From a virus: a DNA stretch of 64,000 nt. The notes under the pieces are model-generated. The model was not told the DNA's origin. It ran no database searches and was given only the letters and a program-made list of their open reading frames with translations. A program made the position numbers and the translations under genes. Location of the stretch: IMG/VR virus record IMGVR_UViG_3300047994_000025, positions 3,360-67,359 of that record; one strand, 5' to 3'. Below are positions 3,333 to 46,723 of the stretch, piece by piece (positions within the stretch are counted from its first letter, which is position 1; each line of letters begins with the position of its first letter).

Positions 3333-5627
3333 TTAGCGTATCCGTGGGTTCTCTTGCACTCGTTGCATACTTTGCGGTAGCTTGTGAGTGTCATAGTCGT
3401 CAAGCCCGTCGATGACCGCGTCGTACGCGATCTTCTTGATCGTTTCGTCACCGTTAGCCGAAAGATGCTGAACGATAGTCACACCGCCGCGATTGTCGTT
3501 TGCAGCGGGCGCGAAAGTCGGGGTCGACGGAACGGCGATGCGGTTGTTCGGCACGACTTGCGAGCCGCCCGGAACCTTCATCAATTCCGGACCCTTTTCA
3601 CCAACCATCTTCCAACCGCCCGACGAATACGACGTACCCGAAGCGTGACCACCGGTGATCCAACTAAACAGACCGCCGAGAATGCCGCCACCGCCGCCCG
3701 TGCCGCCCGCGTTCCACAGACCATCGAACAGACCGTCAAGCGCGGAATCAAGTAGCTTGTCGGCGATCTTTTGCAGTGCGTTCGAAGCGGCGTTCGCGAA
3801 TGATTCCCACAAGCTCTTGCCTTCGATTAGACCGTCTTTAAGGTCGGTGAAGAACCCCTTGAACGTATCCTTGCCGAAGTCATACGCGGCCTTCAAATCC
3901 TTGGTGCGCTGTTCGGCTTCCGCCATCTGTTCAGCGAGACCGTGGATTTCCTCTTTCTGTTGCTGCGTAAGCTTGATGTGCGCGTCAGCCGCCTTGTTCA
4001 GCATTTCCTGTTCGTAGCGAAGCGCGGCGGCGGCTTGCTCGGTCATGCCGATCGCTTCAGCTTCAAGGTTTTGCTGTTCGATGAACTGTTTCGAATCCCG
4101 GATGATCTTTTCGTACGGGTCTTCTTTTTCCTTCGCGCCCTTCTTCTTTTTCTTCGACAGGCGTTCGTTCATCGCTTCGACGGAATTCGCTTTCCACGCG
4201 TCGTAAAACTCGCCGAGCGGATCGGAATTTTCGATTTCGTCGTGACGCTTGTTGCGCGCATCCAACTGCGCTTTCATGTCGGCGACGATCTTGTCGGTAT
4301 TGGCGCGGTCTTCGATCTGGTAGTTCTTCGGGTCGATCATACCCAACGCATCTTGCGATGCGTCATAGCCGGGGATTTTCGACAGTACGCCGTTGATCGC
4401 CGCCGATAGCTTGTTAATGCCGTCAAGCGCATACGAAATCATTCCGTTGATTCCGTCGATCACCATGTTCGTCGCACCAGCGATACCGAGCGCGACGACA
4501 TTCGGGATTTGCTTGAAGATATATTTCAGGTCGTTGTACACATCGGTGAACGACTTAATGATCAGATTGCCCGTCGCGACCGTTGCGTCAACGATCCAAT
4601 CCCACACGGGTTTCAGTGTGTCCATGAGCGGCGAGAACGCGTCGCTGACACCGTCCTTAACGGTCTTCCAAAGACCCGACATGATGTCGCCGAATTCGAT
4701 CGACTTGTGACCAGCGTCGACAAGTTCGTTCTTCAGCTTGAAGACCGTTACGGCACCGATCGCAGCGGCGGCAGTCAACAGCGGAAACTTGGTGATCAGA
4801 CCGAGAATCATCTTGCCAGACTCGCTGAATGCGCGCCCGATACCGCCTTCGTTCGTTCCCCAAATCTGCGCGATCTGTGGTCCTTGCTGAAGAAGGACCA
4901 TCAGCGGCGGCATGCCGAGTGCGAGCGACTGACCGGTGTCGAGCAACTGAAACGACAGGTTTCGCTGTTGCCACGCAAGGTTCTTCGTGACACCCGAAGC
5001 CTTGTCGACAAGGTCGTTACTCTTGCGCATAGACGATGACGCGTTCGTGTAGCTGGCGTTAAGCTGATCGACCATCACAGACGCTTGACGCCCGTTGATG
5101 ATGTTTTGTTGCAGCGCCCGATTAATGTCGCCGAGTTCGGTTTCGTACTTCACGGATGCGGCGTAAACCGAATCGATCTTCATACGAAGCTGATCGAACG
5201 ACGACGTCGGAAGCGGCGGAACCTTCAGCTTTTCAAGCTCGGTGTTCAGCATCGACACTTGCTTTTCAAGCTCGGCAATGCGTGCCGACATAGTCGCCGT
5301 GTCAGCCGCTCCGGACGCCGCGAACTGACCCATTGCAGCGATCAGCGATTGCGTCATGCGTTCGATCGACTCTTCGGCGATCGACACCGTCGTCAGGGAT
5401 TTTGCAAGCTGAACAGCGTTGTCGTTTGCCGCGCGCATGGAAGACTGAAGCTTCGACATTGCGGCAGATGCACCGCCGAACGACATCCGACTTCCGGAGC
5501 CGCCCGACAGTGACTTGTTGAAGGATTCGAGTTCGCGGCGGGCTTGCGCAAGATCATTACGGAGCGGGGTCAAATCCCCGTGCACCGGTACGGTTAGTTC
5601 AGCTACCGTTTGACCTTGCGTCGCCAT
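3333..5627 (-). CDS. Tail tape measure protein
   Basis: 764 aa helical Ala-rich protein; NLSFQLLDTGQSLALGMPPLMVLLQQGPQI (lambda-type TMP motif); C-terminal VGEKGPEL. Confidence 0.92.
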   Translation of the reverse strand: MATQGQTVAELTVPVHGDLTPLRNDLAQARRELESFNKSLSGGSGSRMSFGGASAAMSKLQSSMRAANDNAVQLAKSLTTVSIAEESIERMTQSLIAAMGQFAASGAADTATMSARIAELEKQVSMLNTELEKLKVPPLPTSSFDQLRMKIDSVYAASVKYETELGDINRALQQNIINGRQASVMVDQLNASYTNASSSMRKSNDLVDKASGVTKNLAWQQRNLSFQLLDTGQSLALGMPPLMVLLQQGPQIAQIWGTNEGGIGRAFSESGKMILGLITKFPLLTAAAAIGAVTVFKLKNELVDAGHKSIEFGDIMSGLWKTVKDGVSDAFSPLMDTLKPVWDWIVDATVATGNLIIKSFTDVYNDLKYIFKQIPNVVALGIAGATNMVIDGINGMISYALDGINKLSAAINGVLSKIPGYDASQDALGMIDPKNYQIEDRANTDKIVADMKAQLDARNKRHDEIENSDPLGEFYDAWKANSVEAMNERLSKKKKKGAKEKEDPYEKIIRDSKQFIEQQNLEAEAIGMTEQAAAALRYEQEMLNKAADAHIKLTQQQKEEIHGLAEQMAEAEQRTKDLKAAYDFGKDTFKGFFTDLKDGLIEGKSLWESFANAASNALQKIADKLLDSALDGLFDGLWNAGGTGGGGGILGGLFSWITGGHASGTSYSSGGWKMVGEKGPELMKVPGGSQVVPNNRIAVPSTPTFAPAANDNRGGVTIVQHLSANGDETIKKIAYDAVIDGLDDYDTHKLPQSMQRVQENPRIR

Positions 5628-26317: not shown

Positions 26318-26731
26318 TTGAATATGATTAAGAATTTGACAACCGGTGCAACTTACACAGACGCCACGGAAGCCGCCAGAGCCCTTGGAGTCACGAAAAG
26401 ACATGTACATAATTGTCTGAACGGCTATTACGTACACATTAATGGGAACCGTTTACGCACGATGAAGCCCCCTATAAAATCAAAAATTTGTACACGTCCC
26501 GATTTGGCGAAACCTGTTCGGTGTATCGATAACGGCAGAACGTACACATCCCAAGCGAGCGCGGCACGTGGTGCAAGGGTTCCTGAAGAAGTGATGTCGC
26601 GTCATCTGAACCGGATCGGTCATCGTTTGATCAACGGTATGATGTACGAATATGTACATAAGCGCGATCGTCCGGAGCCACCGACGCCGAAGGGCTTGGA
26701 GCGCTGCAATACGCGAGACCTTTTCAGATGA
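26318..26731 (+). CDS. Tandem NUMOD1-like HTH DNA-binding protein
   Basis: TGATYTDATEAARALGV and KPVRCIDNGRTYTSQASAAR repeats; no nuclease motif seen. Confidence 0.7.
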   Translation: MNMIKNLTTGATYTDATEAARALGVTKRHVHNCLNGYYVHINGNRLRTMKPPIKSKICTRPDLAKPVRCIDNGRTYTSQASAARGARVPEEVMSRHLNRIGHRLINGMMYEYVHKRDRPEPPTPKGLERCNTRDLFR

Positions 26732-27090
26732 GTAAGGCGCTAAGGCTGAATGAAGGCGGGAAGATTTTCCGATCGGCGGCAGCTTGTGCCGCATGGCTCG
26801 GGGTCACGCGCTCGGCTGTAACGAACCATTTGAAGGGACGCGCACCGACCGTCAAGGGCTTCACGATTTCATATATACAGTCGGTGCCGCATAGATTCCC
26901 CCCGGCTACACATCCGCCGAAACGGATCATCTTCGGCGACGACGGGCGGTTCTATCTGACATATTCGGAAGTGGCGCGGGCGAACGGTATAACCCCGGCG
27001 AAGGCTCGGTCTATCATTCTGTCACAGCCTGACGGCGTGTTCCGCATGCCGAAGCCTAAGAAGGCATACACCGGCGATCTGTTCTCTTAA
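26728..27090 (+). CDS. Second NUMOD1-like HTH DNA-binding protein
   Basis: GKIFRSAAACAAWLGVTRSAVTNHL and GRFYLTYSEVARANGI. Confidence 0.65.
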   Translation: MSKALRLNEGGKIFRSAAACAAWLGVTRSAVTNHLKGRAPTVKGFTISYIQSVPHRFPPATHPPKRIIFGDDGRFYLTYSEVARANGITPAKARSIILSQPDGVFRMPKPKKAYTGDLFS

Positions 27091-38579: not shown

Positions 38580-40292
38580 TCAGGCGGCGACGGGTGTCAA
38601 CCGCCGTTGCGTGTGTTCCCTGATCTTGCTTTCGAGTGCTTCGACTTCCGGTCTGGAATCAATGATTTGCGCGCTCATGACGTCAACACCAAACATCAGG
38701 TAAAACCGGCGATAGAGTTCCGAATCGCTTTCACGATGAACGTCACGACCGACGCCCGCCCAAATCGATATCGCGTCGGCAAGCCGGGTGTGTGCTTCCA
38801 ATAGTTCGCGGCGACGTTTCTTGACCGAATTGACCACCACTTCGGACGCACCGAGCGGAACCGCCGCTTCGACGTTTCGAAGCTTGTTGAATTGACCGTG
38901 AAGTCGTGCCATGAACTCCGGGCTGAATTCCGTAAGATCACCGTCGACAAACTCCGGCCCGCTGCGACCCACGGGTTCCGGCTTATGGTCACAATGCGGG
39001 CATTTCGATTTGACGCGTTCGTACGGCTGTTTGCAGTTCTTGCAATTGGTCAGCGGAATATCGTCTTCCTTTTCCCGCGTCTTCTTGCCCTTCTCTTCAC
39101 TAAGCAAGTACCAGCGCTTCGGGCTGGCTGGCATCTTGTGAATCATCCAATTGTTCACGTGATCAATGACAACACCCTTCGGCTTCTTACCCGCCGCCAT
39201 GGACGCAAGTCGACCTTCACGCGTCATCAGATCGAAGCCGGGAGCGTAAACCGGGCGGATCATGCGGCCCGCTTGCTGTCGGAACTTGCCGAGTGACATT
39301 GTCGGTCGACCCATCGACACGACTTCAACGCCGGGGATGTCAAGACCTTCGTCAAACAGGTCGACGTTCACAAGCTGCAACAACCGACCTTCGGCGAACT
39401 TGTCCATCAATCCGGCGCGCACCGAATCAGGTGTCTTGCCGGAGATTGCCGCCGCTGGTACACCGGCGCGATTGAACGCTTCAGCCGTCGCGATAGCGGT
39501 GTCGACGTCGACCACGAACGTGATACCGGCGAGACCCGCCACGTTATCAAGGTAGGTCTGAACGATGTCGCCGACGATCTTTGATTCGTGCGATTTCTTG
39601 CGAACCGCGTCGTTCTTCCATTCGCCAGTCGATTCGCTGATGTCGGCTTGTTCCATGACGATCGACGGCTTTTCGGCGATATACCGATAGTCGGACAAGA
39701 ATCCTTCTTCGATCATCCAAGCCGGTGTCGGACCTTCGACCATTTCATGAAACACACCGCCTTGCGAAAACGCCAGCGATCGACGGTCACAACGGAGCGG
39801 CGTCGCGGTCGCACCGAGACCCCACGCGTTCGACATCGCCTTCGGGATTTCACCGAACTGATTGTTCGAAAGGAAATGGTGCGCTTCGTCGCCGATCCAC
39901 AGGCGAACCGACGCGATCCATTGCTTCAGTTCTTCGAAGCGTTTGACAAGCGTCTGAATACTGACGACGCCGACCGGGCTTTGCTGATGAACGAACGACT
40001 GACCGAACCGCTTGACGTGGCGCGAAACGCACAGTGCGACCGTCGACTTCGATCCGACGACACGGTGATAGATACCGAGCAATGCGAGCGATTCGGACAA
40101 CTGCGCGACAAGCTCGGCGCGGTGCACTGACAAGCACGTCGGAACAGCCATGTCTTTGATGATCGACGCGACGGTGATCGTCTTGCCTGATCCGGTCGGT
40201 AGAACCGCTAGAACGTTCTTGTTCCCGCCGTTCCATGCATCATAGATTTTCTGTTTTACGTCGATCTGATACGAACGGAGATTCACCGTCAT
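38580..40292 (-). CDS. SF2 (DEAH) DNA helicase with C-terminal Zn ribbon
   Basis: LRSYQ, PTGSGKT, DEAHH, TATP, EGLDIP, QQAGR; CKNC...CPHC. Confidence 0.93.
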   Translation of the reverse strand: MTVNLRSYQIDVKQKIYDAWNGGNKNVLAVLPTGSGKTITVASIIKDMAVPTCLSVHRAELVAQLSESLALLGIYHRVVGSKSTVALCVSRHVKRFGQSFVHQQSPVGVVSIQTLVKRFEELKQWIASVRLWIGDEAHHFLSNNQFGEIPKAMSNAWGLGATATPLRCDRRSLAFSQGGVFHEMVEGPTPAWMIEEGFLSDYRYIAEKPSIVMEQADISESTGEWKNDAVRKKSHESKIVGDIVQTYLDNVAGLAGITFVVDVDTAIATAEAFNRAGVPAAAISGKTPDSVRAGLMDKFAEGRLLQLVNVDLFDEGLDIPGVEVVSMGRPTMSLGKFRQQAGRMIRPVYAPGFDLMTREGRLASMAAGKKPKGVVIDHVNNWMIHKMPASPKRWYLLSEEKGKKTREKEDDIPLTNCKNCKQPYERVKSKCPHCDHKPEPVGRSGPEFVDGDLTEFSPEFMARLHGQFNKLRNVEAAVPLGASEVVVNSVKKRRRELLEAHTRLADAISIWAGVGRDVHRESDSELYRRFYLMFGVDVMSAQIIDSRPEVEALESKIREHTQRRLTPVAA

Positions 40293-40294
40293 CG

Positions 40295-41206
40295 TTATGC
40301 CGCCTGTCGTACGCTTTGATCTAATGCGATCTGTTTGAAAAGGTGTGCAATCACTTCAACCGTCCACCCATTACCGAGCATCTTGTATCGTTGTGACTTC
40401 GGCGCAAAACCCGTGTAATTTTCGGGAACAGTCTGAAGTCTTTCGCATTCCAAGGGGGTCATTGCCCGCCATGTCGTAACACCGTTTTTCTGCGTTATAA
40501 CGGCAGTGCCACCAGAACCACAAGGATTACCGGCATTCCAAGCGCCAAGACATGCTGATTTTTCGTCAAGGTCTCGAAGATTTATGGACAATCTTTCGCG
40601 CGATAGTTTACCCTTTGATCCGCCAAAAAATTCGTCGTTCTTTTCAACCTTGTGTCTTGAAATATCCTTGACGTTGCCTTCAATGATGTCACGGATTGTC
40701 AGCTTTTTATCAATCCATTCATGAACCGGGAAATTCGTCCAATACAATCGTAATCGGTTTTGAGCACTAAAATCCGAACTGTTGATCAGTATTGGTTTTA
40801 CACCGAGAAACCCCGAAATGACGTCTTGCCAGTCCTGTTTCATGTTGACGTTTTCAAGTAAGAAATAACGCGGTTTGAGTTCTCGCATTAGTCGGACGAA
40901 CTCAAAAAATAGCTTTGATCGCGGGTCTTCAAAATTCAAACCTTGTCCGGCTGTGGAAAACCCTTGACACGGTGAACCACCCATCAAGAGCGATATTTGC
41001 GGCAAGCGATCGACATTGACTTTTGTCACGTCACCAAGCTGTACCGTACGTGGGAAATTTTGCTGCGTTACGGCAATTGCATGCTTGTCGATTTCCGACG
41101 CAAAGTAACGACCGTATTTCACGCCCGCGCGGTTCAACGCCAGTTGGCCGCAAGACATTCCATCGAAAAGCGAAGGCTTTTCGGAATAACGTGTGGATTT
41201 GTCCAT
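40295..41206 (-). CDS. C5-cytosine DNA methyltransferase whose native N-terminus (41689-41645) is displaced by an insertion
   Basis: SLFDG, GGSPCQ, LENV, QNRLRLYW, ERLQ, LGNGW; original start MTGDLFGGGFNVLSL lies 477 bp upstream. Confidence 0.9.
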   Translation of the reverse strand: MDKSTRYSEKPSLFDGMSCGQLALNRAGVKYGRYFASEIDKHAIAVTQQNFPRTVQLGDVTKVNVDRLPQISLLMGGSPCQGFSTAGQGLNFEDPRSKLFFEFVRLMRELKPRYFLLENVNMKQDWQDVISGFLGVKPILINSSDFSAQNRLRLYWTNFPVHEWIDKKLTIRDIIEGNVKDISRHKVEKNDEFFGGSKGKLSRERLSINLRDLDEKSACLGAWNAGNPCGSGGTAVITQKNGVTTWRAMTPLECERLQTVPENYTGFAPKSQRYKMLGNGWTVEVIAHLFKQIALDQSVRQAA

Positions 41207-41651
41207 GATATGTGCTATCCTGTTTTCGGATTAACGTGTGGATTGGAGAGCCTCGATGACCCTGAAGCCAGTGAGAGAAACCGTCGCCCGGATGGTTGAC
41301 CCGTATTCCTTCATGCCCGACAACAGCGGAGACGATTTGATCGGTGAGATGGTTCGGAACGGTCGAGATGATGCGCTTCGCAAGGCAGACCGCATCATCT
41401 CCGCAGTTCTCTCTGCGGACACGATGACCCTTCAAGAGCCTAAGCGTCCTAACCTCGATGCCAGCAATATGAAGTTCGGCAACTGCCATCAGTGCGGCGT
41501 TCGCGACAATCTCGGAATGACTGAAGATAACGCCCTTATCTGCGGGTCGTGCGCTGATGCCAATCACTTGGCTGACTGGATTGACTACGCTCGGGCGCTG
41601 CGTGGAATTATCTGTTCCGACTCCACACGTTAATCCGAACGCGGAAGCGAA
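41168..41651. mobile_element. Element E1: 470-bp transposase-less insertion with 7-bp target duplication
   Basis: AAGCGAA at 41168-41174 and 41645-41651; TTCGGA(A/T)TAACGTGTGGA at 41180 and 41225, inverted at 41622-41639; removal restores NVLSL|FDGMSCG. Confidence 0.85.
41256..41633 (+). CDS. E1 cargo: 125-aa protein with CxxC...CxxC zinc site
   Basis: GGAGAG RBS; CHQC and CGSC; stop codon lies inside the right repeat. Confidence 0.65.
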   Translation: MTLKPVRETVARMVDPYSFMPDNSGDDLIGEMVRNGRDDALRKADRIISAVLSADTMTLQEPKRPNLDASNMKFGNCHQCGVRDNLGMTEDNALICGSCADANHLADWIDYARALRGIICSDSTR

Positions 41652-41685
41652 AGCACGTTAAAACCGCCGCCGAACAAATCACCCG

Positions 41686-41880
41686 TCATCGTGAAGCGTA
41701 CCTTTTTAGAACTGCAATCAATGTGTTCAATTCGTTGACGGTGAACAGCGCGTACGGCTGATTCTGGTGATAGGTGTTCAGTCGCACCGTCACGACGTCG
41801 CCTTTTCGGGAAACGCCGAGATTACCTATGATTTCGACCTTTGTCGATTTCGGAACCCCGGCGAACAGATCACCCGACAT
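41686..41880 (-). CDS. Small hypothetical protein (N-terminal SGDLF)
   Basis: Coupled to neighbouring genes by overlaps. Confidence 0.6.
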   Translation of the reverse strand: MSGDLFAGVPKSTKVEIIGNLGVSRKGDVVTVRLNTYHQNQPYALFTVNELNTLIAVLKRYASR

Positions 41881-42301
41881 AACGGATCATTACCCCGGCT
41901 TCATCCGCCATTGTGTTCGCGGCGGTGAACTCTTCCTTCGGCATGGATGTTTCGCCCGGACCGACGACAACGCACGTGATACCGGCTTGAATGATCGACT
42001 TCATACAGCCGGAGCAAGGCGAATGCGTTGTGAAGATCGTACAGCCGAGCAACGACACTCCGTTACGTGCGGCGAAGGCGATTGCGTTTTGCTCGGCGTG
42101 GCTGGCGAACAGATACTTCGCCGGTCGTTCCCGACGTTCCGGAAGATCACGAACACCGCGCGGCGGACCGTTGAAGCCCGTCGACCTGATTTCGTTCGTA
42201 CCGGTGCCAGCGATCACCGCGCCGACCTGTGTCGAGTCTTTTGACATTGTCGCGGCATGTTCCGCGAAACCCATAAGATACTTGTCCCACTTGTCGCTCA
42301 T
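41870..42301 (-). CDS. dCMP deaminase
   Basis: SKD.STQVGAVI, TGFNGPPRG, HAEQNAI, PCSGC. Confidence 0.93.
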   Translation of the reverse strand: MSDKWDKYLMGFAEHAATMSKDSTQVGAVIAGTGTNEIRSTGFNGPPRGVRDLPERRERPAKYLFASHAEQNAIAFAARNGVSLLGCTIFTTHSPCSGCMKSIIQAGITCVVVGPGETSMPKEEFTAANTMADEAGVMIRYVG

Positions 42302-42474
42302 TTCCGACCCCAACTTAAGGCGGCATTGAACACGAAGCCTTGTGCCGACGCGACCACGAAACCGAAGAAATAGGAAGACCAGTCAACCGGCCCGCTGTAC
42401 CACGTCCGCGCGATCGGATAGACCGCCGCGCACAACGCAAATCCAATAATCCAACGTCCTACTGTGTTCATCAT
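42298..42474 (-). CDS. Small membrane protein (58 aa)
   Basis: Hand-translated MMNTVGRWIIGFALCAAVYP...; ATGA overlaps on both sides. Confidence 0.55.
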   Translation of the reverse strand: MMNTVGRWIIGFALCAAVYPIARTWYSGPVDWSSYFFGFVVASAQGFVFNAALSWGRK

Positions 42475-43022
42475 GCGGACACCGGACGGGAAAGCTTCGC
42501 CTTGGCGGCTGCAACAACCTTTGCTTGGTGGATTGCGTCATCAAGGGCGTAGTGTTTGACACCGACGAATTCGACCGTCTTTTGATCGAATTCGGAAATA
42601 TCGATCAAAGTTCGAAGGCAGCGCGGCGCGCGGAAGTGCCATGGCAAGTTCCCCTTGTTGCACGCGTAATAAGCCGCTTCGGTTAACCCGACGTCGAACT
42701 GTGGCGGCTTCGCCCATAGCTGTTTCACTTCGTACGCGCCGCGATACCATTCGGTAAACGAATCGAGCGCTTCAGGAAGTGGACGGCGATCGTTCATCAG
42801 GAAGTGTCGGGCTTTGAGGAATTCCGGATCGGTCGCCCATAGACGACGCGTTGTTTCGTCTATGCACAAGCCATGATCAAGCGATGACCACAGGTCGATG
42901 TTCACATAGAACCGATCGACAATCACGCCGTCGTTGGGGTCGAAAGCACATGCGCCGATTGACAATACGACCGCGCCGGGGTGCTTTCCAAGTGTTTCGA
43001 TATCAATTGATACGTCAACCAT
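42471..43022 (-). CDS. DEDDh 3'-5' exonuclease (DUF5051-like)
   Basis: IDIETLG, SIGAC, FD, HYALDDA. Confidence 0.88.
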   Translation of the reverse strand: MVDVSIDIETLGKHPGAVVLSIGACAFDPNDGVIVDRFYVNIDLWSSLDHGLCIDETTRRLWATDPEFLKARHFLMNDRRPLPEALDSFTEWYRGAYEVKQLWAKPPQFDVGLTEAAYYACNKGNLPWHFRAPRCLRTLIDISEFDQKTVEFVGVKHYALDDAIHQAKVVAAAKAKLSRPVSA

Positions 43023-43161
43023 GCTAAAGGTTCTCCGTTCATTAGCGGGTGTCAAATCGCATGGATTAACGATCTATGTCAAATGCAAAATACCTGTTGA
43101 CAGGTGACGCCGTTCAAGCATACAAGCCAAACCGTCAACGGCAACACGGAGAAAATTGCAC

Positions 43162-43920
43162 ATGGCAAATCGGAAATTCACAGTGACGTTTGATGTCGCT
43201 GACGATGAATTCGAAAACTTCATGACCCGTCTTTCGGGCGGCAAGATTTTCGAAGGGGAAATTCCCCGCAATCTCACACTGAACACCGGCGAAGGTGACG
43301 AAGGCGACGGCCCGGTTAACACCGGATCGGTCGACAAGTTCGGCGTAACTTGGGATGCTCGATTCCACGGCGTCGCCAAGAATACGAACAAGGATGGTTC
43401 GTGGAAGCGCACCAAGGGTCTGTCGGACGCCGTCAAGGCTGAAGCCGACGCTTACGAAGCCGCACAGAAGGCGGCGTTTACCGGCAATGTGACCGGACCG
43501 GCTGTCACGGAACCCACTCCGGCACCTGTCGCCGCGCCTGTAACTGCCGCACCTGTGGCCGAACCCGCTCCGGTCGCCGCACCTGTCGGAATGCCCGGAC
43601 TGCCGGTCGCAGCGCCCGCCGCTCTTCCGCTTCCCGTCGCTCCGGTAGCGAAGCCGCCGATCAGCTATGAAGAAGTCGTCGCGCTCTTCGGTCAGGCGTC
43701 CGCGAAAGACCCGTCGATCGCCGCGAACTTCGCACAGCTTTACGCGGAATGCGGTATCAGCGATCCGAACGCGCTGACCACCGACGAAACTCTTCGTCGC
43801 AAGCTCGCCGACCGGCTTGAAGCCGTAATCGCGGCGGCTATCCGACTTTCGGGGTTGGAACCTCAGTCGAACAGACCTGCTCTCAAATCGCACTCCAAGG
43901 TTGACAGGTTGACCCCATGA
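43162..43920 (+). CDS. Conserved-looking hypothetical replication-module protein with Pro/Ala linker; C-terminus extended by element E2
   Basis: DKFGVTWDARFH...KDGSWKRTKG motif; native end LEAVIAA* now sits at 45470-45503. Confidence 0.7.
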   Translation: MANRKFTVTFDVADDEFENFMTRLSGGKIFEGEIPRNLTLNTGEGDEGDGPVNTGSVDKFGVTWDARFHGVAKNTNKDGSWKRTKGLSDAVKAEADAYEAAQKAAFTGNVTGPAVTEPTPAPVAAPVTAAPVAEPAPVAAPVGMPGLPVAAPAALPLPVAPVAKPPISYEEVVALFGQASAKDPSIAANFAQLYAECGISDPNALTTDETLRRKLADRLEAVIAAAIRLSGLEPQSNRPALKSHSKVDRLTP

Positions 43921-44183
43921 CCAATCGTCGTGTTCATAATCTTATCGTAGTCTGGATCGTTCAGCCTGATGCTGAAGTCGTAGATATCGATCAAGCGCTT
44001 GGTGCCGTACTTCAGCAGCGCCTTGGCTCGGAGCGTCTCCAGATCGTAGCCACGACCGCCGCACTGCTCGACGACCGGATCGGTGATGATCGTGTCGACG
44101 TACAACTTCCCGTCCAGCTCTTCGGTCTCCATGGCCAGGTAGCCATCCAGCCGCAGCAGATCAAACCCAACAATTCCCCGCAT
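43863..44183 (-). CDS. E2 cargo: hypothetical protein (106 aa)
   Basis: Protein-like composition, G-rich RBS before ATG 44183, stop just inside the left end. Confidence 0.55.
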   Translation of the reverse strand: MRGIVGFDLLRLDGYLAMETEELDGKLYVDTIITDPVVEQCGGRGYDLETLRAKALLKYGTKRLIDIYDFSIRLNDPDYDKIMNTTIGHGVNLSTLECDLRAGLFD

Positions 44184-44248
44184 GCCCGTCCCCGCTTTCG
44201 GCGCGGACATTACCGGGACCGGGTTACCAGTCAACTAAGGGTCGCGGC

Positions 44249-45394
44249 ATGACGGCTTACTACAACGAGATCGATCCGTACGCCGCTCAGTGGCTTCGCA
44301 ACCTCATAAGCAAAAACCTCATCGCTCCGGGCGATGTCGATGAAAGGAGCATCGTGGATGTCCATCCCGACGACCTCAAAGGGTACAGTCAGTGCCACTT
44401 TTTCGCAGGCATCGGAGGCTGGAGCCTCGGGGCACGGCTCGCAGGATGGCCAGACGATCGACCTCTTTGGACTGGTTCCTGCCCGTGCCAGCCGTTCTCA
44501 GCGGCAGGAAAAGGCGAAGGGAAAGCAGACAAGCGTCACCTCTGGCCAGTCTTCTTCAACCTCATCCGTGCCCAGCGGCCCCATGTCGTCATGGGAGAAC
44601 AGGTTGCGGCTGCGGTTGGAAAGGATTGGCTCGACGGAGTGCATTCTGACCTGGAAAGCATCGACTACGCCTGCGGGGCTGCCGTTGTCCCGGCTTGTGC
44701 CGTCGACGCGCCCCACAGAAGAGATCGCCTCTGGTTTGTGGCCCACCCCGACCCTGCCGAACGGCGGGAGATCGATAGCCTGCGCGGACGAATGGCGCGG
44801 CAATACCCCGTACCACAAAGGCAGGAAGCTTCAGGTGGACCTTTCCCAGACGGTAAGGATGGTCAAGGGCATAGCCCTGTGGCCAACGCCGAACAGCCAG
44901 ATCAGTGGGGATACCCCAGAGACGCACGAAGCGCGGCAAGCCAGGGTGGTGGCAAAGCATGGGCGCAGGATGGGGACACCATTGGTCGTGCATGCGATGC
45001 ACGCGGAATCGGGAACCACGATAGCGGCTCTATGGGCGACACCAAAAGCGTCGGACGGGAAGGGCAACATCTACCTACCAGAACCAGATTGCAGGCGGGT
45101 GGAGCTTCGGAAGCAGGTCGGCGGAATAGCACTTCATGGTCAGGAGCAGAGTTCATCGTCGGAGCGGACGGAAAAGCCCGGCGCATTGAACCCGGCATTC
45201 GTCTCCTGGCTCATGGGGTTCCCGCCAGAGTGGGAAGATTGCGCGCCTACGGAAACGCCATCGTCCCGCAAGTCGCGGCAGAAGTGATCGGCGCATTTAT
45301 GGAGACACACAGCCCGTCCGCCCGATCCGCTCCGAGCTTTGATCCACTACTCGGATCGGGCGGACTACCGTTGGAGCAAGGGAATGAGCAATGA
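44249..45394 (+). CDS. E2 cargo: C5-cytosine methyltransferase, large polypeptide
   Basis: FFAGIGG, TGSCPCQPFS, GEQV, HRRDRLWF, YGNAIVPQVA. Confidence 0.9.
   Translation: MTAYYNEIDPYAAQWLRNLISKNLIAPGDVDERSIVDVHPDDLKGYSQCHFFAGIGGWSLGARLAGWPDDRPLWTGSCPCQPFSAAGKGEGKADKRHLWPVFFNLIRAQRPHVVMGEQVAAAVGKDWLDGVHSDLESIDYACGAAVVPACAVDAPHRRDRLWFVAHPDPAERREIDSLRGRMARQYPVPQRQEASGGPFPDGKDGQGHSPVANAEQPDQWGYPRDARSAASQGGGKAWAQDGDTIGRACDARGIGNHDSGSMGDTKSVGREGQHLPTRTRLQAGGASEAGRRNSTSWSGAEFIVGADGKARRIEPGIRLLAHGVPARVGRLRAYGNAIVPQVAAEVIGAFMETHSPSARSAPSFDPLLGSGGLPLEQGNEQ
44334..45287 (+). CDS. E2 cargo: nested alternative-frame methyltransferase partner polypeptide (motif IX, WPTP repeats)
   Basis: 317-codon +1-frame ORF; LWPTP x2 and LWATP; LNPAFVSWLMGFPPEW. 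Confidence 0.75.
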   Translation: MSMKGASWMSIPTTSKGTVSATFSQASEAGASGHGSQDGQTIDLFGLVPARASRSQRQEKAKGKQTSVTSGQSSSTSSVPSGPMSSWENRLRLRLERIGSTECILTWKASTTPAGLPLSRLVPSTRPTEEIASGLWPTPTLPNGGRSIACADEWRGNTPYHKGRKLQVDLSQTVRMVKGIALWPTPNSQISGDTPETHEARQARVVAKHGRRMGTPLVVHAMHAESGTTIAALWATPKASDGKGNIYLPEPDCRRVELRKQVGGIALHGQEQSSSSERTEKPGALNPAFVSWLMGFPPEWEDCAPTETPSSRKSRQK

Positions 45395-45536
45395 TCGTAT
45401 CAACCTCGGAAGACGAAAGCAGGAGGGGACCCCCGAATGTCAGATCAACCTCAGAAATCGGAAAGCCCCCGCCGACCGGCTTGAAGCCGTAATCGCGGCT
45501 TAACACCGTCGACGGGCGCGAATGCCCGTCAAACAT

Positions 45537-45612
45537 TGGGGAGTCGCCAAGCGGTAAGGCACCGGCTTTTGGGTCCGGCATTTCATAGGTTCGAATCCTA
45601 TCTCCCCAACCA
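45537..45612 (+). tRNA. tRNA-Gln(UUG)
   Basis: Acceptor TGGGGAG/CTCCCCA, D arm GCCAAGCGGTAAGGC, anticodon loop TT-TTG-GG, GTTCGAATC, encoded CCA. Confidence 0.92.
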
Positions 45613-45634
45613 CTTCTTTTTCACCGGGTAAAAC

Positions 45635-46723
45635 ATGACGTATAATCTTCGACCGTCAGCGTCCGGTATATGGACGAAGTGCGCCGCAAATCCGCGCATT
45701 GCACAGAATGCAAAGACGATACCCGGCAGCACCGACGCCGCACGCGAAGGAACATGCGCGGCATGGGTCGCGGAATGTGTTCTTAAAGGCGGGTCGACGT
45801 GCGCCGACATGGTCGGTAAAGTGCACGAAAACGGTTGGGTCGTGGACTCCGAAATGGCGTATCACGTTCAAGGATACGTCGACATGGTGCGGTCGCGCGG
45901 TGGCACGATCAACGCCGAAATGTTCGTGCGTCTGACCGAGACGATCGCCGGTACGTATGACTCTTCGACGGTGTCGAGTGACGCCGAAACACTCTTCGGT
46001 GATGACCTGAAATACGGGTTCAAGATTGTCGACGTGTGGGAATGCACACAGTTGATTATCTATCTGTACGCCGAGTATATCCGGCTCGGTTGTCCGCCGT
46101 CGATCAAGAAAGTCACAATGGGGATTTACCAGCCGCGCGCGTTCCATCCAGAAGGCATTCACCGCACGTGGACGATATCAATTCAAGAACTGTACGAACG
46201 CGCCGCCAAGATCGCCGAGCAAGGCGAAGCGTGCCAAGACCCGAACGCCGTCGCGACTGCCGGAGCGCATTGCGAACACTGCAAAGGTCGGCTGGAATGC
46301 TTGACATTGTCGGCAAATCTTGGTGCGATGTACGAACGAATCGAGCGTGCCGAAAGCGGTCCGATGACGTCCGAACAGTTGGCGGAAGAAGCGAACTTCT
46401 TAGTCACCCTTGAGTCGATGCTGAAGGCGCGCAAGACGGCTGTTGAAGCCGAGCTTGAAACGCGACTTGACAACGATGAATACATCCGTGGATGGGGTAA
46501 GAAAGACCGTTTCGGCAATCGCGTTTTTACGGTTGACCCTGTCACGGTTCATCTGTTAACAGGTGTCAACCCGTTTGAAACGGTGACGATCACACCGGCG
46601 AAGTTGGAGCAAGCCGGAGCGAACAAGAACATCGTCAAGAGCATCACCCGCCAACCGAAAATCGGTTCGGCGTTGAAACAAACCACAGACAAAGATTTCG
46701 GGAGAATGTTACGTGACCGTTAA
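45635..46723 (+). CDS. Cas4-like PD-(D/E)xK exonuclease (DUF2800-like)
   Basis: LRPSA...W..C, AREGT.A, GTYD, DLKYG, QL..Y, IYQPR, HCEHC. Confidence 0.85.
   Translation: MTYNLRPSASGIWTKCAANPRIAQNAKTIPGSTDAAREGTCAAWVAECVLKGGSTCADMVGKVHENGWVVDSEMAYHVQGYVDMVRSRGGTINAEMFVRLTETIAGTYDSSTVSSDAETLFGDDLKYGFKIVDVWECTQLIIYLYAEYIRLGCPPSIKKVTMGIYQPRAFHPEGIHRTWTISIQELYERAAKIAEQGEACQDPNAVATAGAHCEHCKGRLECLTLSANLGAMYERIERAESGPMTSEQLAEEANFLVTLESMLKARKTAVEAELETRLDNDEYIRGWGKKDRFGNRVFTVDPVTVHLLTGVNPFETVTITPAKLEQAGANKNIVKSITRQPKIGSALKQTTDKDFGRMLRDR

Follow-up and report, generated by a model that had tools for sequence, protein, structure and literature searches.

What becomes of a phage gene when a small mobile element settles inside it, and could a start codon carried at the element's edge set translation of the remainder going again? 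The question is posed by a 64,000-nucleotide (nt) stretch of virus DNA, referred to here as the window (positions 3,360 to 67,359 of the IMG/VR record IMGVR_UViG_3300047994_000025, and so nearly the whole of that 67,359-nt record), in which a short element, E1, interrupts a gene for a C5 cytosine methyltransferase and a second element, E2, lies a little farther along. The answer reached here, which is held to be likely, is that E1 is a mobile insertion cassette derived from an insertion sequence of the ISL3 family, that the spacer between two sequence boxes at one of its ends would act as a promoter directed inwards, and that a conserved ATG in the same spacer, directed outwards, would give an open reading frame (ORF) fused to the remainder of the methyltransferase gene. 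The ISL3 identity of E1 and E2 went unrecognised in a first-pass annotation of the same DNA, several of whose other statements are taken up below.

The extent of E1 is given by an empty site. Public contigs were placed on 40700-42100 of the window, and a 252-nt contig from a different study (run X4) joins 41167 to 41645, skipping 477 nt and showing zero other differences; seven letters at the joint are assignable to either side, and the depth of the contig is 2.1. Because of this join an empty-site allele exists, and because a near-identical phage without E1 therefore exists also, the insertion is recent. E1 proper is 470 nt long (41175-41644), and together with its 7-nt target duplication makes up the 477 nt that are skipped, a multiple of three. 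With the empty and the occupied site both present, E1 is seen to move as a unit, as a mobile insertion cassette does. The earlier statement that E1 splits the methyltransferase gene can be taken as correct (the alignment of homologues, which begins at residue 12 of the downstream piece, agrees with this). As to its anatomy, E1 has at one end two direct 18-nt boxes with a period of 45 nt and at the other a single inverted box, which is complementary to the inner of the two at 18/18 positions and to the outer at 17/18; within the window the box finds three matches at three or fewer mismatches where 0.25 would be expected, a count reached by one of 100 shuffles. Between the ends lies a single passenger gene, and a scan of 40900-42000 gave zero terminator-like sites in the interior of E1 and one outside it. 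The coordinates of these and other features are collected in Table 1.

Table 1. Coordinates (window numbering) of features of E1, of E2 and of the interrupted operon.
Feature	Position	Strand	Remarks
Target-site duplication, copy 5' of methyltransferase	41645-41651	-	exact 7-nt direct repeat; empty-site joint
Target-site duplication, second copy	41168-41174	-	exact 7-nt repeat of 41645-41651; empty-site joint
E1 single-box end	41622-41644		inverted 18-nt box 41622-41639 and 5-nt terminal extension 41640-41644
E1 passenger gene, 125 amino acids (aa)	41256-41633	+	ORF with CxxC...CxxC zinc ribbon; last three codons and stop within inverted box
E1 inner box of two-box (left, promoter-side) end	41225-41242		adjoins passenger ribosome-binding site
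E1 spacer, 27 nt	41198-41224		inward -10-like element; outward AGGA and ATG
E1 terminus	41175-41197		outer box 41180-41197 and 5-nt extension 41175-41179; boundary from empty-site joint
Orphaned 5' methyltransferase piece	41630-41689	-	19 codons and TAA; ATGA overlap with upstream stop
Possible restart ORF, 303 aa	40295-41206	-	eleven element-encoded residues, then SLFDG and rest of C5 methyltransferase
dCMP deaminase	41870-42313	-	operon member
64-aa ORF upstream of methyltransferase	41686-41880	-	operon member
Helicase	38580-40292	-	operon member
E2	43836-45469		decayed ISL3-type element, second end type
E2 truncated transposase ORF, 123 aa	43863-44234	-	similarity starts at ATG 44183
E2 passenger C5 methyltransferase	44249-45394	+	phrog_363, 3.4e-82
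E2 boxes	45399-45418, 45444-45463		direct, 45 nt apart
E2 spacer signals	AGGAGG 45421-45426; ATG 45437	outward	
30-nt direct repeat flanking E2	43806-43835 (left), 45470-45499 (right)		perfect

It is the boxes that lead to the family. The exact 18-nt box was found in 13 IMG/VR stretches (12 contigs, with GC contents of 34-63%), and the two-box pattern, with a period of exactly 45 nt, in 14 IMG/VR stretches and 14 Ralstonia plasmid records; among 401 sampled genomes of the phylum the pattern had 0 matches, a result that holds for those genomes only. Inward of the two-box end, searches by tblastn place an ISL3 transposase in all 14 of the two-box IMG/VR loci and in both of the Ralstonia loci examined, its start lying 314-1019 nt from that end, behind a variable passenger gene. 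Since the transposase lies inward in every locus, the two-box end is to be regarded as the upstream, left end of the ISL3 group. Boxes the same as those of E1 bound transposase-bearing elements in the loci labelled L088, L098 and L100-L115, and in the phage Bcep22. A 442-aa ORF that Pfam identifies as an ISL3 transposase reads through the box at its very end in both L088 and L098; that of L088, which terminates within the terminal box, matches DDE_Tnp_ISL3 at 8.3e-64, and the ISL3 zinc ribbon and helix-turn-helix domains besides.

The slot for the passenger, between two-box end and transposase gene, thus varies over the same 314-1019 nt throughout L100-L115. Its occupant is annotated as a DNA methyltransferase in two Ralstonia plasmids, and in L117 (an element of the E2 type, discussed below) it has a PAPS-reductase domain; such passengers of the group as can be named are genes of the DNA-modification type.

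Relatives without a transposase also exist. Three such cassettes (L086, L091 and L094) measure 760-895 nt and are bounded by single boxes which, each with a conserved 5-nt extension, form inverted repeats, and a fourth (L087) measures 884 nt and has a two-box end with a period of 44 nt; all four show exact 8-nt duplications. A further one, L095, is 572 nt long, and has neither a transposase nor an exact duplication. Duplication of 8 nt of the target site is a hallmark of the ISL3 family, and exact 8-nt duplications are present in nine related elements altogether, the figure being 7 nt in L112 and in E1. In two AT-rich phage contigs, the cassettes of L086 (710-1469) and L091 (1496-2255), both of 760 nt and with near-identical ends, are inserted at separate sites, and their 8-nt duplications differ; each contains a promoter-like region and, set against one of its boxes, a terminator hairpin, and they look like mobile 'morons'.

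As for E1 itself, its only gene, that for the 125-aa protein, matches no Pfam or PHROG family, PF01610 is absent from the whole 67,359-nt record, and tblastn with two ISL3 transposases gave zero matches in the window. Because neither E1 nor the record encodes an ISL3 transposase, E1 would be a derivative rather than an autonomous member of the family, and for the same reason its mobilisation would have to have taken place in trans. Judged by its sequence, then, E1 is a transposase-less, non-autonomous ISL3-family derivative, that is, a mobile insertion cassette. Both of its ends match sequences in its closest relative, the autonomous element of L112, and the two interiors cannot be aligned, which would make E1 the left-end module of an ISL3 element, moving alone. 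The cassette would on this account consist of the parent's two-box left end, the zinc-ribbon passenger and an inverted box resembling a right end; an ISL3 transposase acting in trans, from the host or from a co-resident element, would have cut 5 nt outside each outermost box, and E1 would have been pasted into codon 15/16 of the methyltransferase gene with duplication of 7 nt of target. These steps are read from the anatomy of E1 taken together with its empty site.

The spacer of the two-box end appears to serve the element before it serves its surroundings. In all 15 of the distinct two-box ends compared, an inward TAnnnT hexamer begins at position 17 or 19 of the spacer (where shuffles would give 1.99 such ends), preceded in five of them by a TGn just upstream (0.12 expected). 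In E1 the inward strand carries TGn and TAnnnT at 41213-41221, with the hexamer at 41216-41221, and the ribosome-binding site of the passenger gene follows directly after the inner box. The spacer is most likely E1's own inward promoter, of the extended -10 type, lying between transposase-binding boxes, and these flanking boxes probably regulate it. This has a bearing on the AGGA that lies on the outward strand of the same stretch and had been taken in the first-pass annotation for a replacement ribosome-binding site. That AGGA, at 41221-41218, is simply the inward hexamer read in reverse complement, and it stands 11 nt from the ATG, a gap in excess of the usual optimum spacing. Because the hexamer that it complements is conserved in 15/15 ends, the spacer should be regarded as first of all the element's promoter region, and a replacement ribosome-binding site is not supported as a conserved trait of E1-type ends, from which a Shine-Dalgarno sequence is mostly absent.

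What E1 has done to its target can be stated fairly exactly. The methyltransferase gene belongs to a minus-strand operon in which dCMP deaminase, a 64-aa ORF, the methyltransferase and a helicase follow one another; the native start codon of the methyltransferase, the ATG at 41689, overlaps the stop of the 64-aa ORF as ATGA, and the helicase begins at 40292, 2 nt past the methyltransferase stop. From the native ATG the frame now reads MTGDLFGGGFNVLSLPRSD, which is to say 19 codons, and then meets a TAA (41632-41630) within the inverted box; five more in-frame stops follow inside E1, giving six in total. The native start, its coupling and this TAA were all found where the earlier annotation had put them. 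So too was the spacer ATG at 41206: since 41689-41206 = 483 = 3 x 161, it lies in the native frame, and it opens a 303-aa ORF whose residues 12-293 match Pfam DNA_methylase (E 7.5e-45).

The first eleven residues of that ORF come from the element. Of 80 IMG/VR homologues, 77 resemble the restart ORF from its residue 12 onwards, and 79 have a strand of the type xVLSL immediately ahead of FDG(M/I)S, in most cases next to the start codon (the 80th, L006, was missed by the pattern used to search for the strand). With NVLSL left on the 5' part and SLFDG on the 3' part, the enzyme has been split exactly between strand 1 and FDG. In the restart form, if it is translated, SLFDG would be kept, and the N, V and L of strand 1 would give way to eleven polar or proline-containing residues, much as had been described from the first. 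For METHYLTRANSFERASE the consequence is that the restart enzyme would probably be unstable or inactive, most of strand 1 being gone. If ribosomes do start at 41206, the product would probably be a destabilised protein, yet the passage of ribosomes along the 900-nt gene body could shield expression of the downstream helicase from polarity; translational coupling and Rho-dependent polarity are both known phenomena, and the helicase start lies so close behind the methyltransferase stop, which is why this possibility is raised at all.

The native start region has a further peculiarity, in that the methyltransferase ORF and the 64-aa ORF open with 23-nt stretches (41667-41689 and 41858-41880 respectively) that are 87% identical, the encoded peptides being MTGDLFGG and MSGDLFAG; the likeness points to duplication of a translation-initiation region. 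Most of the homologous methyltransferases begin at the NVLSL strand itself, ten codons farther on.

Whether the ATG at 41206 is of any significance depends in large part on whether other ends have it. An outward in-frame ATG, open as far as the terminus, is present in 13/15 distinct E1-type ends, against 1.78 expected from spacer shuffles, and a count of 13 was reached in 0 of 400,000 simulated sets. The codon occupies spacer nt 22-24, 19-21 or 13-15, and is always in the frame of the outer box. Since that frame is itself open through the terminal box, any insertion in the right frame would produce a fusion ORF; and since at the element's other end this frame specifies the C-terminal residues of the transposase, the openness of the box frame is explained by descent. 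By this comparison of sequences, the outward ATG is inherited from autonomous ISL3 elements and is not specific to the present insertion. A CATG palindrome is usual at this place, so that the inward strand also reads ATG in 12/15 spacers. A Shine-Dalgarno sequence, in the form of a GGAG- or GGA-like motif close to the ATG, could be recognised (by eye) in L102 and less clearly in L110, with weak cases also in E1 and L112, and was mostly absent otherwise. Conservation of ribosome-binding site and ATG among family members had been put forward as a check; the ATG has been borne out, whereas the ribosome-binding site has not in ends of the E1 type, although it is present in 4/4 ends of the E2 type. 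For E1, a simple scan found no sigma-70-like promoter directed outwards.

The surroundings into which these frames open are mixed. Sixteen ends were examined, of which two have no outward ORF; many of the outward ORFs end only 4-10 nt past the terminus, and several, that of Bcep22 included, run antisense to neighbouring genes. Six of the 16 could be judged as having a mini-ORF with a co-directional flanking ORF, and in five of these six the outward ORF is fused in frame, or ends at or beside the next start. The end in the window is fused in frame to the flanking gene; that of L108 continues, by fusion, into the final 54 codons of an interrupted ORF, and its end overlaps the next start; in L110 the outward ORF stops 3 nt before the next start, in L112 it is in frame with the start of the next gene, and in L115 it stops overlapping a possible start (the depositor annotating the opposite strand). 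The sixth, L114, does not fit the pattern. It must be remembered that for any one insertion the expectation of being in frame by chance is one in three. The outward start codon is, then, a conserved trait of the group, whereas its use as a restart is no more than plausible.

A second source of comparison is E2. Its site is the 3' end of a gene on the plus strand (43156-43920), which belongs to a PHROG family of unknown function, and its termini form, by eye, a gapped inverted repeat in a style like that of E1. The first-pass annotation had noted AGGAGG and an outward ATG in this element as well, at nearly the same position as in E1, and this is readily seen in the sequence: when the ends of E1 and E2 are aligned without gaps the ATG is offset by 1 nt, and it is out of frame with the last codons of the target gene. 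The right 160 nt of E2 are 84-85% identical to three IMG/VR loci (L116-L118, obtained by a terminus pattern search of IMG/VR), with the same terminal base and three different flanks, and AGGAGG or AGGAAG is kept together with the ATG in 4/4 of these E2-type ends. In L117 the adjacent ORF, on the minus strand, encodes an ISL3 transposase (DDE_Tnp_ISL3, 2.5e-27), and 36 of its 41 N-terminal residues match the 123-aa ORF of E2, after which the two diverge; because of this match E2 can be identified as a decayed ISL3 element with a truncated transposase. The ends of E2 gave one 20-nt match to plasmids, at chance level only, and among phages only its methyltransferase finds matches.

In contrast to the inward arrangement of E1, the passenger of E2-type elements reads outward, towards the two-box end, and there a second outward ORF (45391-45490 in E2, about 1940-2070 in L116-L118) begins with an ATG or GTG overlapping the passenger stop and runs through both boxes to the terminus, so that two outward frames are open at an E2-type end. 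The 30-nt repeat that flanks E2 is a doubling of the final ten codons of the target gene, and from its upstream copy the frame reads on into E2 for a further 29 residues; in length the repeat greatly exceeds the 7-8 nt duplications typical of the family. A tRNA-Gln gene (anticodon TTG) lies at 45537-45612, 38 nt past the right copy.

Several observations weigh against the interpretation of E1 as an ISL3-derived cassette with a promoter and a usable start codon in its spacer. Its target duplication is 7 nt long, as against 8 in nine relatives, and extends to 8 only if one mismatch is allowed; the 5-nt extension of its single-box end is unlike the canonical terminal extension of the family; and an internal inverted box of the kind that appears to form this end is clear in just one of 15 autonomous relatives (L112), marginal in L103 (where its score was reached by 7 of 300 shuffles) and absent in 13. 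On those figures the internal inverted box was rejected as a general feature of the group. With regard to the spacer, a sigma-70 consensus scan of 40900-42000 in both directions gave zero promoter-like sites, so that it is the -10-like hexamer that carries the promoter reading. In the minimum-energy fold predicted for the methyltransferase-sense RNA, the single-box end pairs with the inner box, and the restart region is base-paired to that of the native start, which would hinder initiation at 41206. Finally, the ends that were compared are related by descent, so that the shuffle statistics overstate their independence.

How much should be made of the outward ATG can be argued in either direction from an ISL3-derived cassette. 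At one extreme, the two-box end might have been selected to start translation outwards, so that an interrupted gene is re-started, or the next gene kept coupled, free of polarity. This is considered rather unlikely, in spite of some suggestive facts: the ATG recurs far above the expectation from shuffles while the rest of the spacer, the -10-like hexamer excepted, varies; the divergent E2-type ends all retain it behind AGGAGG or AGGAAG, and add the second ORF over the passenger stop; the spacer ORFs of L117 and L118 stop overlapping the start of the next gene, as does the box-frame ORF of L116; and five of the six E1-type cases that could be judged are in frame or abut the next start. However, a conserved Shine-Dalgarno sequence is missing from the E1-type ends, the AGGA of E1 being the complement of the -10-like hexamer and lying 11 nt from the ATG; roughly half of the loci have antisense or non-coding DNA where the outward frame leaves the element, and many outward ORFs terminate almost at once; and the shared ancestry of the ends counts here also. 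The in-frame or coupled cases could moreover represent the survivorship of tolerated insertions, not design, and the counts are small, with some flanking ORFs unannotated and the strand annotated in L115 being the opposite one. At the other extreme, E1 may simply have knocked out a dispensable methyltransferase, the ATG being retained in these ends for some other reason (for example within a protein-binding or promoter-associated motif, given the CATG palindrome in which it usually lies) and falling in frame here by the one-in-three chance. This is a serious possibility, falling only a little short of probable. The best-conserved feature of the spacer is after all the inward hexamer, and the inward strand usually reads ATG too, as a palindrome must; an insertion so recent needs no long selection on a fusion; E2 supplies another C5 methyltransferase in the same phage; and the restart would replace most of a first strand that 79/80 homologues keep. 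Against it, the ATG lies outside the region that a -35 or -10 of the inferred promoter would take, and its frame relative to the box is fixed despite shifts in position of 3 or 9 nt; the inward ATG, in the one case read by eye (L103), is followed by an immediate stop; and the E2-type ends pair their ATG with a strong Shine-Dalgarno sequence.

Phage genes often carry introns, inteins or homing-endonuclease elements, and the fact that insertion and duplication together amount to a multiple of three might bring to mind an element removed at the level of RNA or protein, leaving the methyltransferase intact. That E1 is of this kind is extremely improbable, and the possibility was rejected: Rfam, searched over 40000-46500 at E up to 1, returned only a tRNA, the insertion has six in-frame stops, and the only conserved ORF of E1 is on the opposite strand, while the inverted repeats, the target duplication and the occurrence of identical ends around ISL3 transposase genes all point to a DNA transposon. 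Returning to the ISL3-derived cassette, in which the spacer would work inwards as a promoter and its outward ATG opens a fusion ORF, one may still ask what the group as a whole gains. The combination of a passenger slot with a built-in outward start codon (and, in the E2 type, a strong Shine-Dalgarno sequence) might amount to an anti-polarity device suited to life in virus genomes: on insertion into a densely packed, translationally coupled phage operon it would restart the gene that was cut, or hold ribosomes on the message as far as the following gene. This must be called a doubtful proposition at present.

Rather little can be added about the passenger of E1. Its protein has three homologues, with 57-63% identity, one of them named 'zinc ribbon domain-containing protein'. 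Of its relatives, the viral contigs gave zero context, genome contigs yielded one partial match at a contig end and metagenome contigs one domain-shuffled match, and when 401 genomes of a single bacterial family were sampled, 2 had partial matches. In a metagenome contig (L003, 574-711) the N-terminal 46 residues of the family form the C-terminal end of a longer ORF. The protein family is modular.

The record as a whole is that of a tailed phage by Pfam, with a tape-measure protein, a Mu-type portal, a terminase and a replication module. An N4-like phage was considered and rejected, as the matches were limited to the dCMP deaminase gene and Pfam gave no giant RNA polymerase. Far from E1, two adjacent small ORFs (26318-26731 and 26728-27090) have NUMOD-like DNA-binding domains of the I-HmuI type (4.5e-05 and 1.7e-06 respectively), and no nuclease domain was found at either.

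Comparison with published systems has to begin with the fact that the literature search (which did not extend to ISfinder or to much of the subscription literature) found no account of ISL3-derived cassettes in phages or of outward start codons, and that passages of PMC7371123 offered nothing on either subject. The present locus offers one 67-kb phage that holds two ISL3-derived elements, one of them with its empty site, and the same ISL3 group, with its swappable passenger gene, is found in more than 12 phage contigs of public data. On the usual view, phages tolerate insertion sequences badly, as their genomes are almost all coding and their genes are translationally coupled. If it is true that the outward codon drives translation, the persistence of these elements in phages would be explained, and there would be a translational counterpart to the outward promoters already known; if it is not, nothing out of the ordinary has taken place, a small cassette having recently disabled a methyltransferase that is dispensable. 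Among systems with outward promoters, the insertion of ISAba1 in adeS (PMC3498117) reportedly leaves a truncated yet expressed protein, which is attributed to a promoter of the element directed outwards; there, too, the downstream part of a gene is expressed from signals at an element's end, although the signal in E1 would be a start codon rather than a promoter, to go by the simple scan. In the matter of mobility the nearest parallels are MIC231 (derived from IS231 in Bacillus cereus) and the passenger-carrying 'transporter' insertion sequences, in which the ends of an insertion sequence flank a gene other than a transposase, there is a target duplication but no transposase, and mobilisation is presumed to be in trans. 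Unlike E1, those mobile insertion cassettes belong to the IS4/IS231 family and come from bacterial chromosomes and plasmids.

Two autonomous elements are especially instructive. In the Burkholderia phage Bcep22 (AY349011.3, 18217-20374), boxes annotated as 'putative insertion sequence boundary' stand round gp34, gp33 and gp32, the last an 'ISL3 family transposase'. This element shares with E1 the same 18-nt boxes, a two-box end with a 45-nt period upstream of its genes, and residence in a phage genome; the single box at its other end is overlapped by the 3' end of the transposase gene, and its target duplication is 8 nt. It differs in its length of 2158 nt and in its autonomy, two small genes preceding that for the transposase, whereas E1 has no transposase and employs an inverted box of internal type as its second end. 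The in-frame ATG of Bcep22 lies 6 nt farther from the outer box than that of E1 and 9 nt farther than at the commonest position, and its outward frame runs antisense into a terminator and a neighbouring gene. Closer still to E1, and indeed its closest relative, is the element of L112 (on the same contig as L097), whose two-box end is alike in about 68 of 75 nt (counted by eye), the outward ATG included, and whose internal inverted box, placed after the passenger gene and before the transposase, is identical to the single-box end of E1 over 30/30 nt. In contrast to E1, it is 1734 nt long, encodes a 445-aa ISL3 transposase (DDE_Tnp_ISL3, 1.6e-56) and has a canonical far end, and its 85-aa passenger is unrelated to that of E1, with which it does not align; the element has its site ahead of a gene rather than within it, and is flanked, like E1, by a 7-nt duplication.

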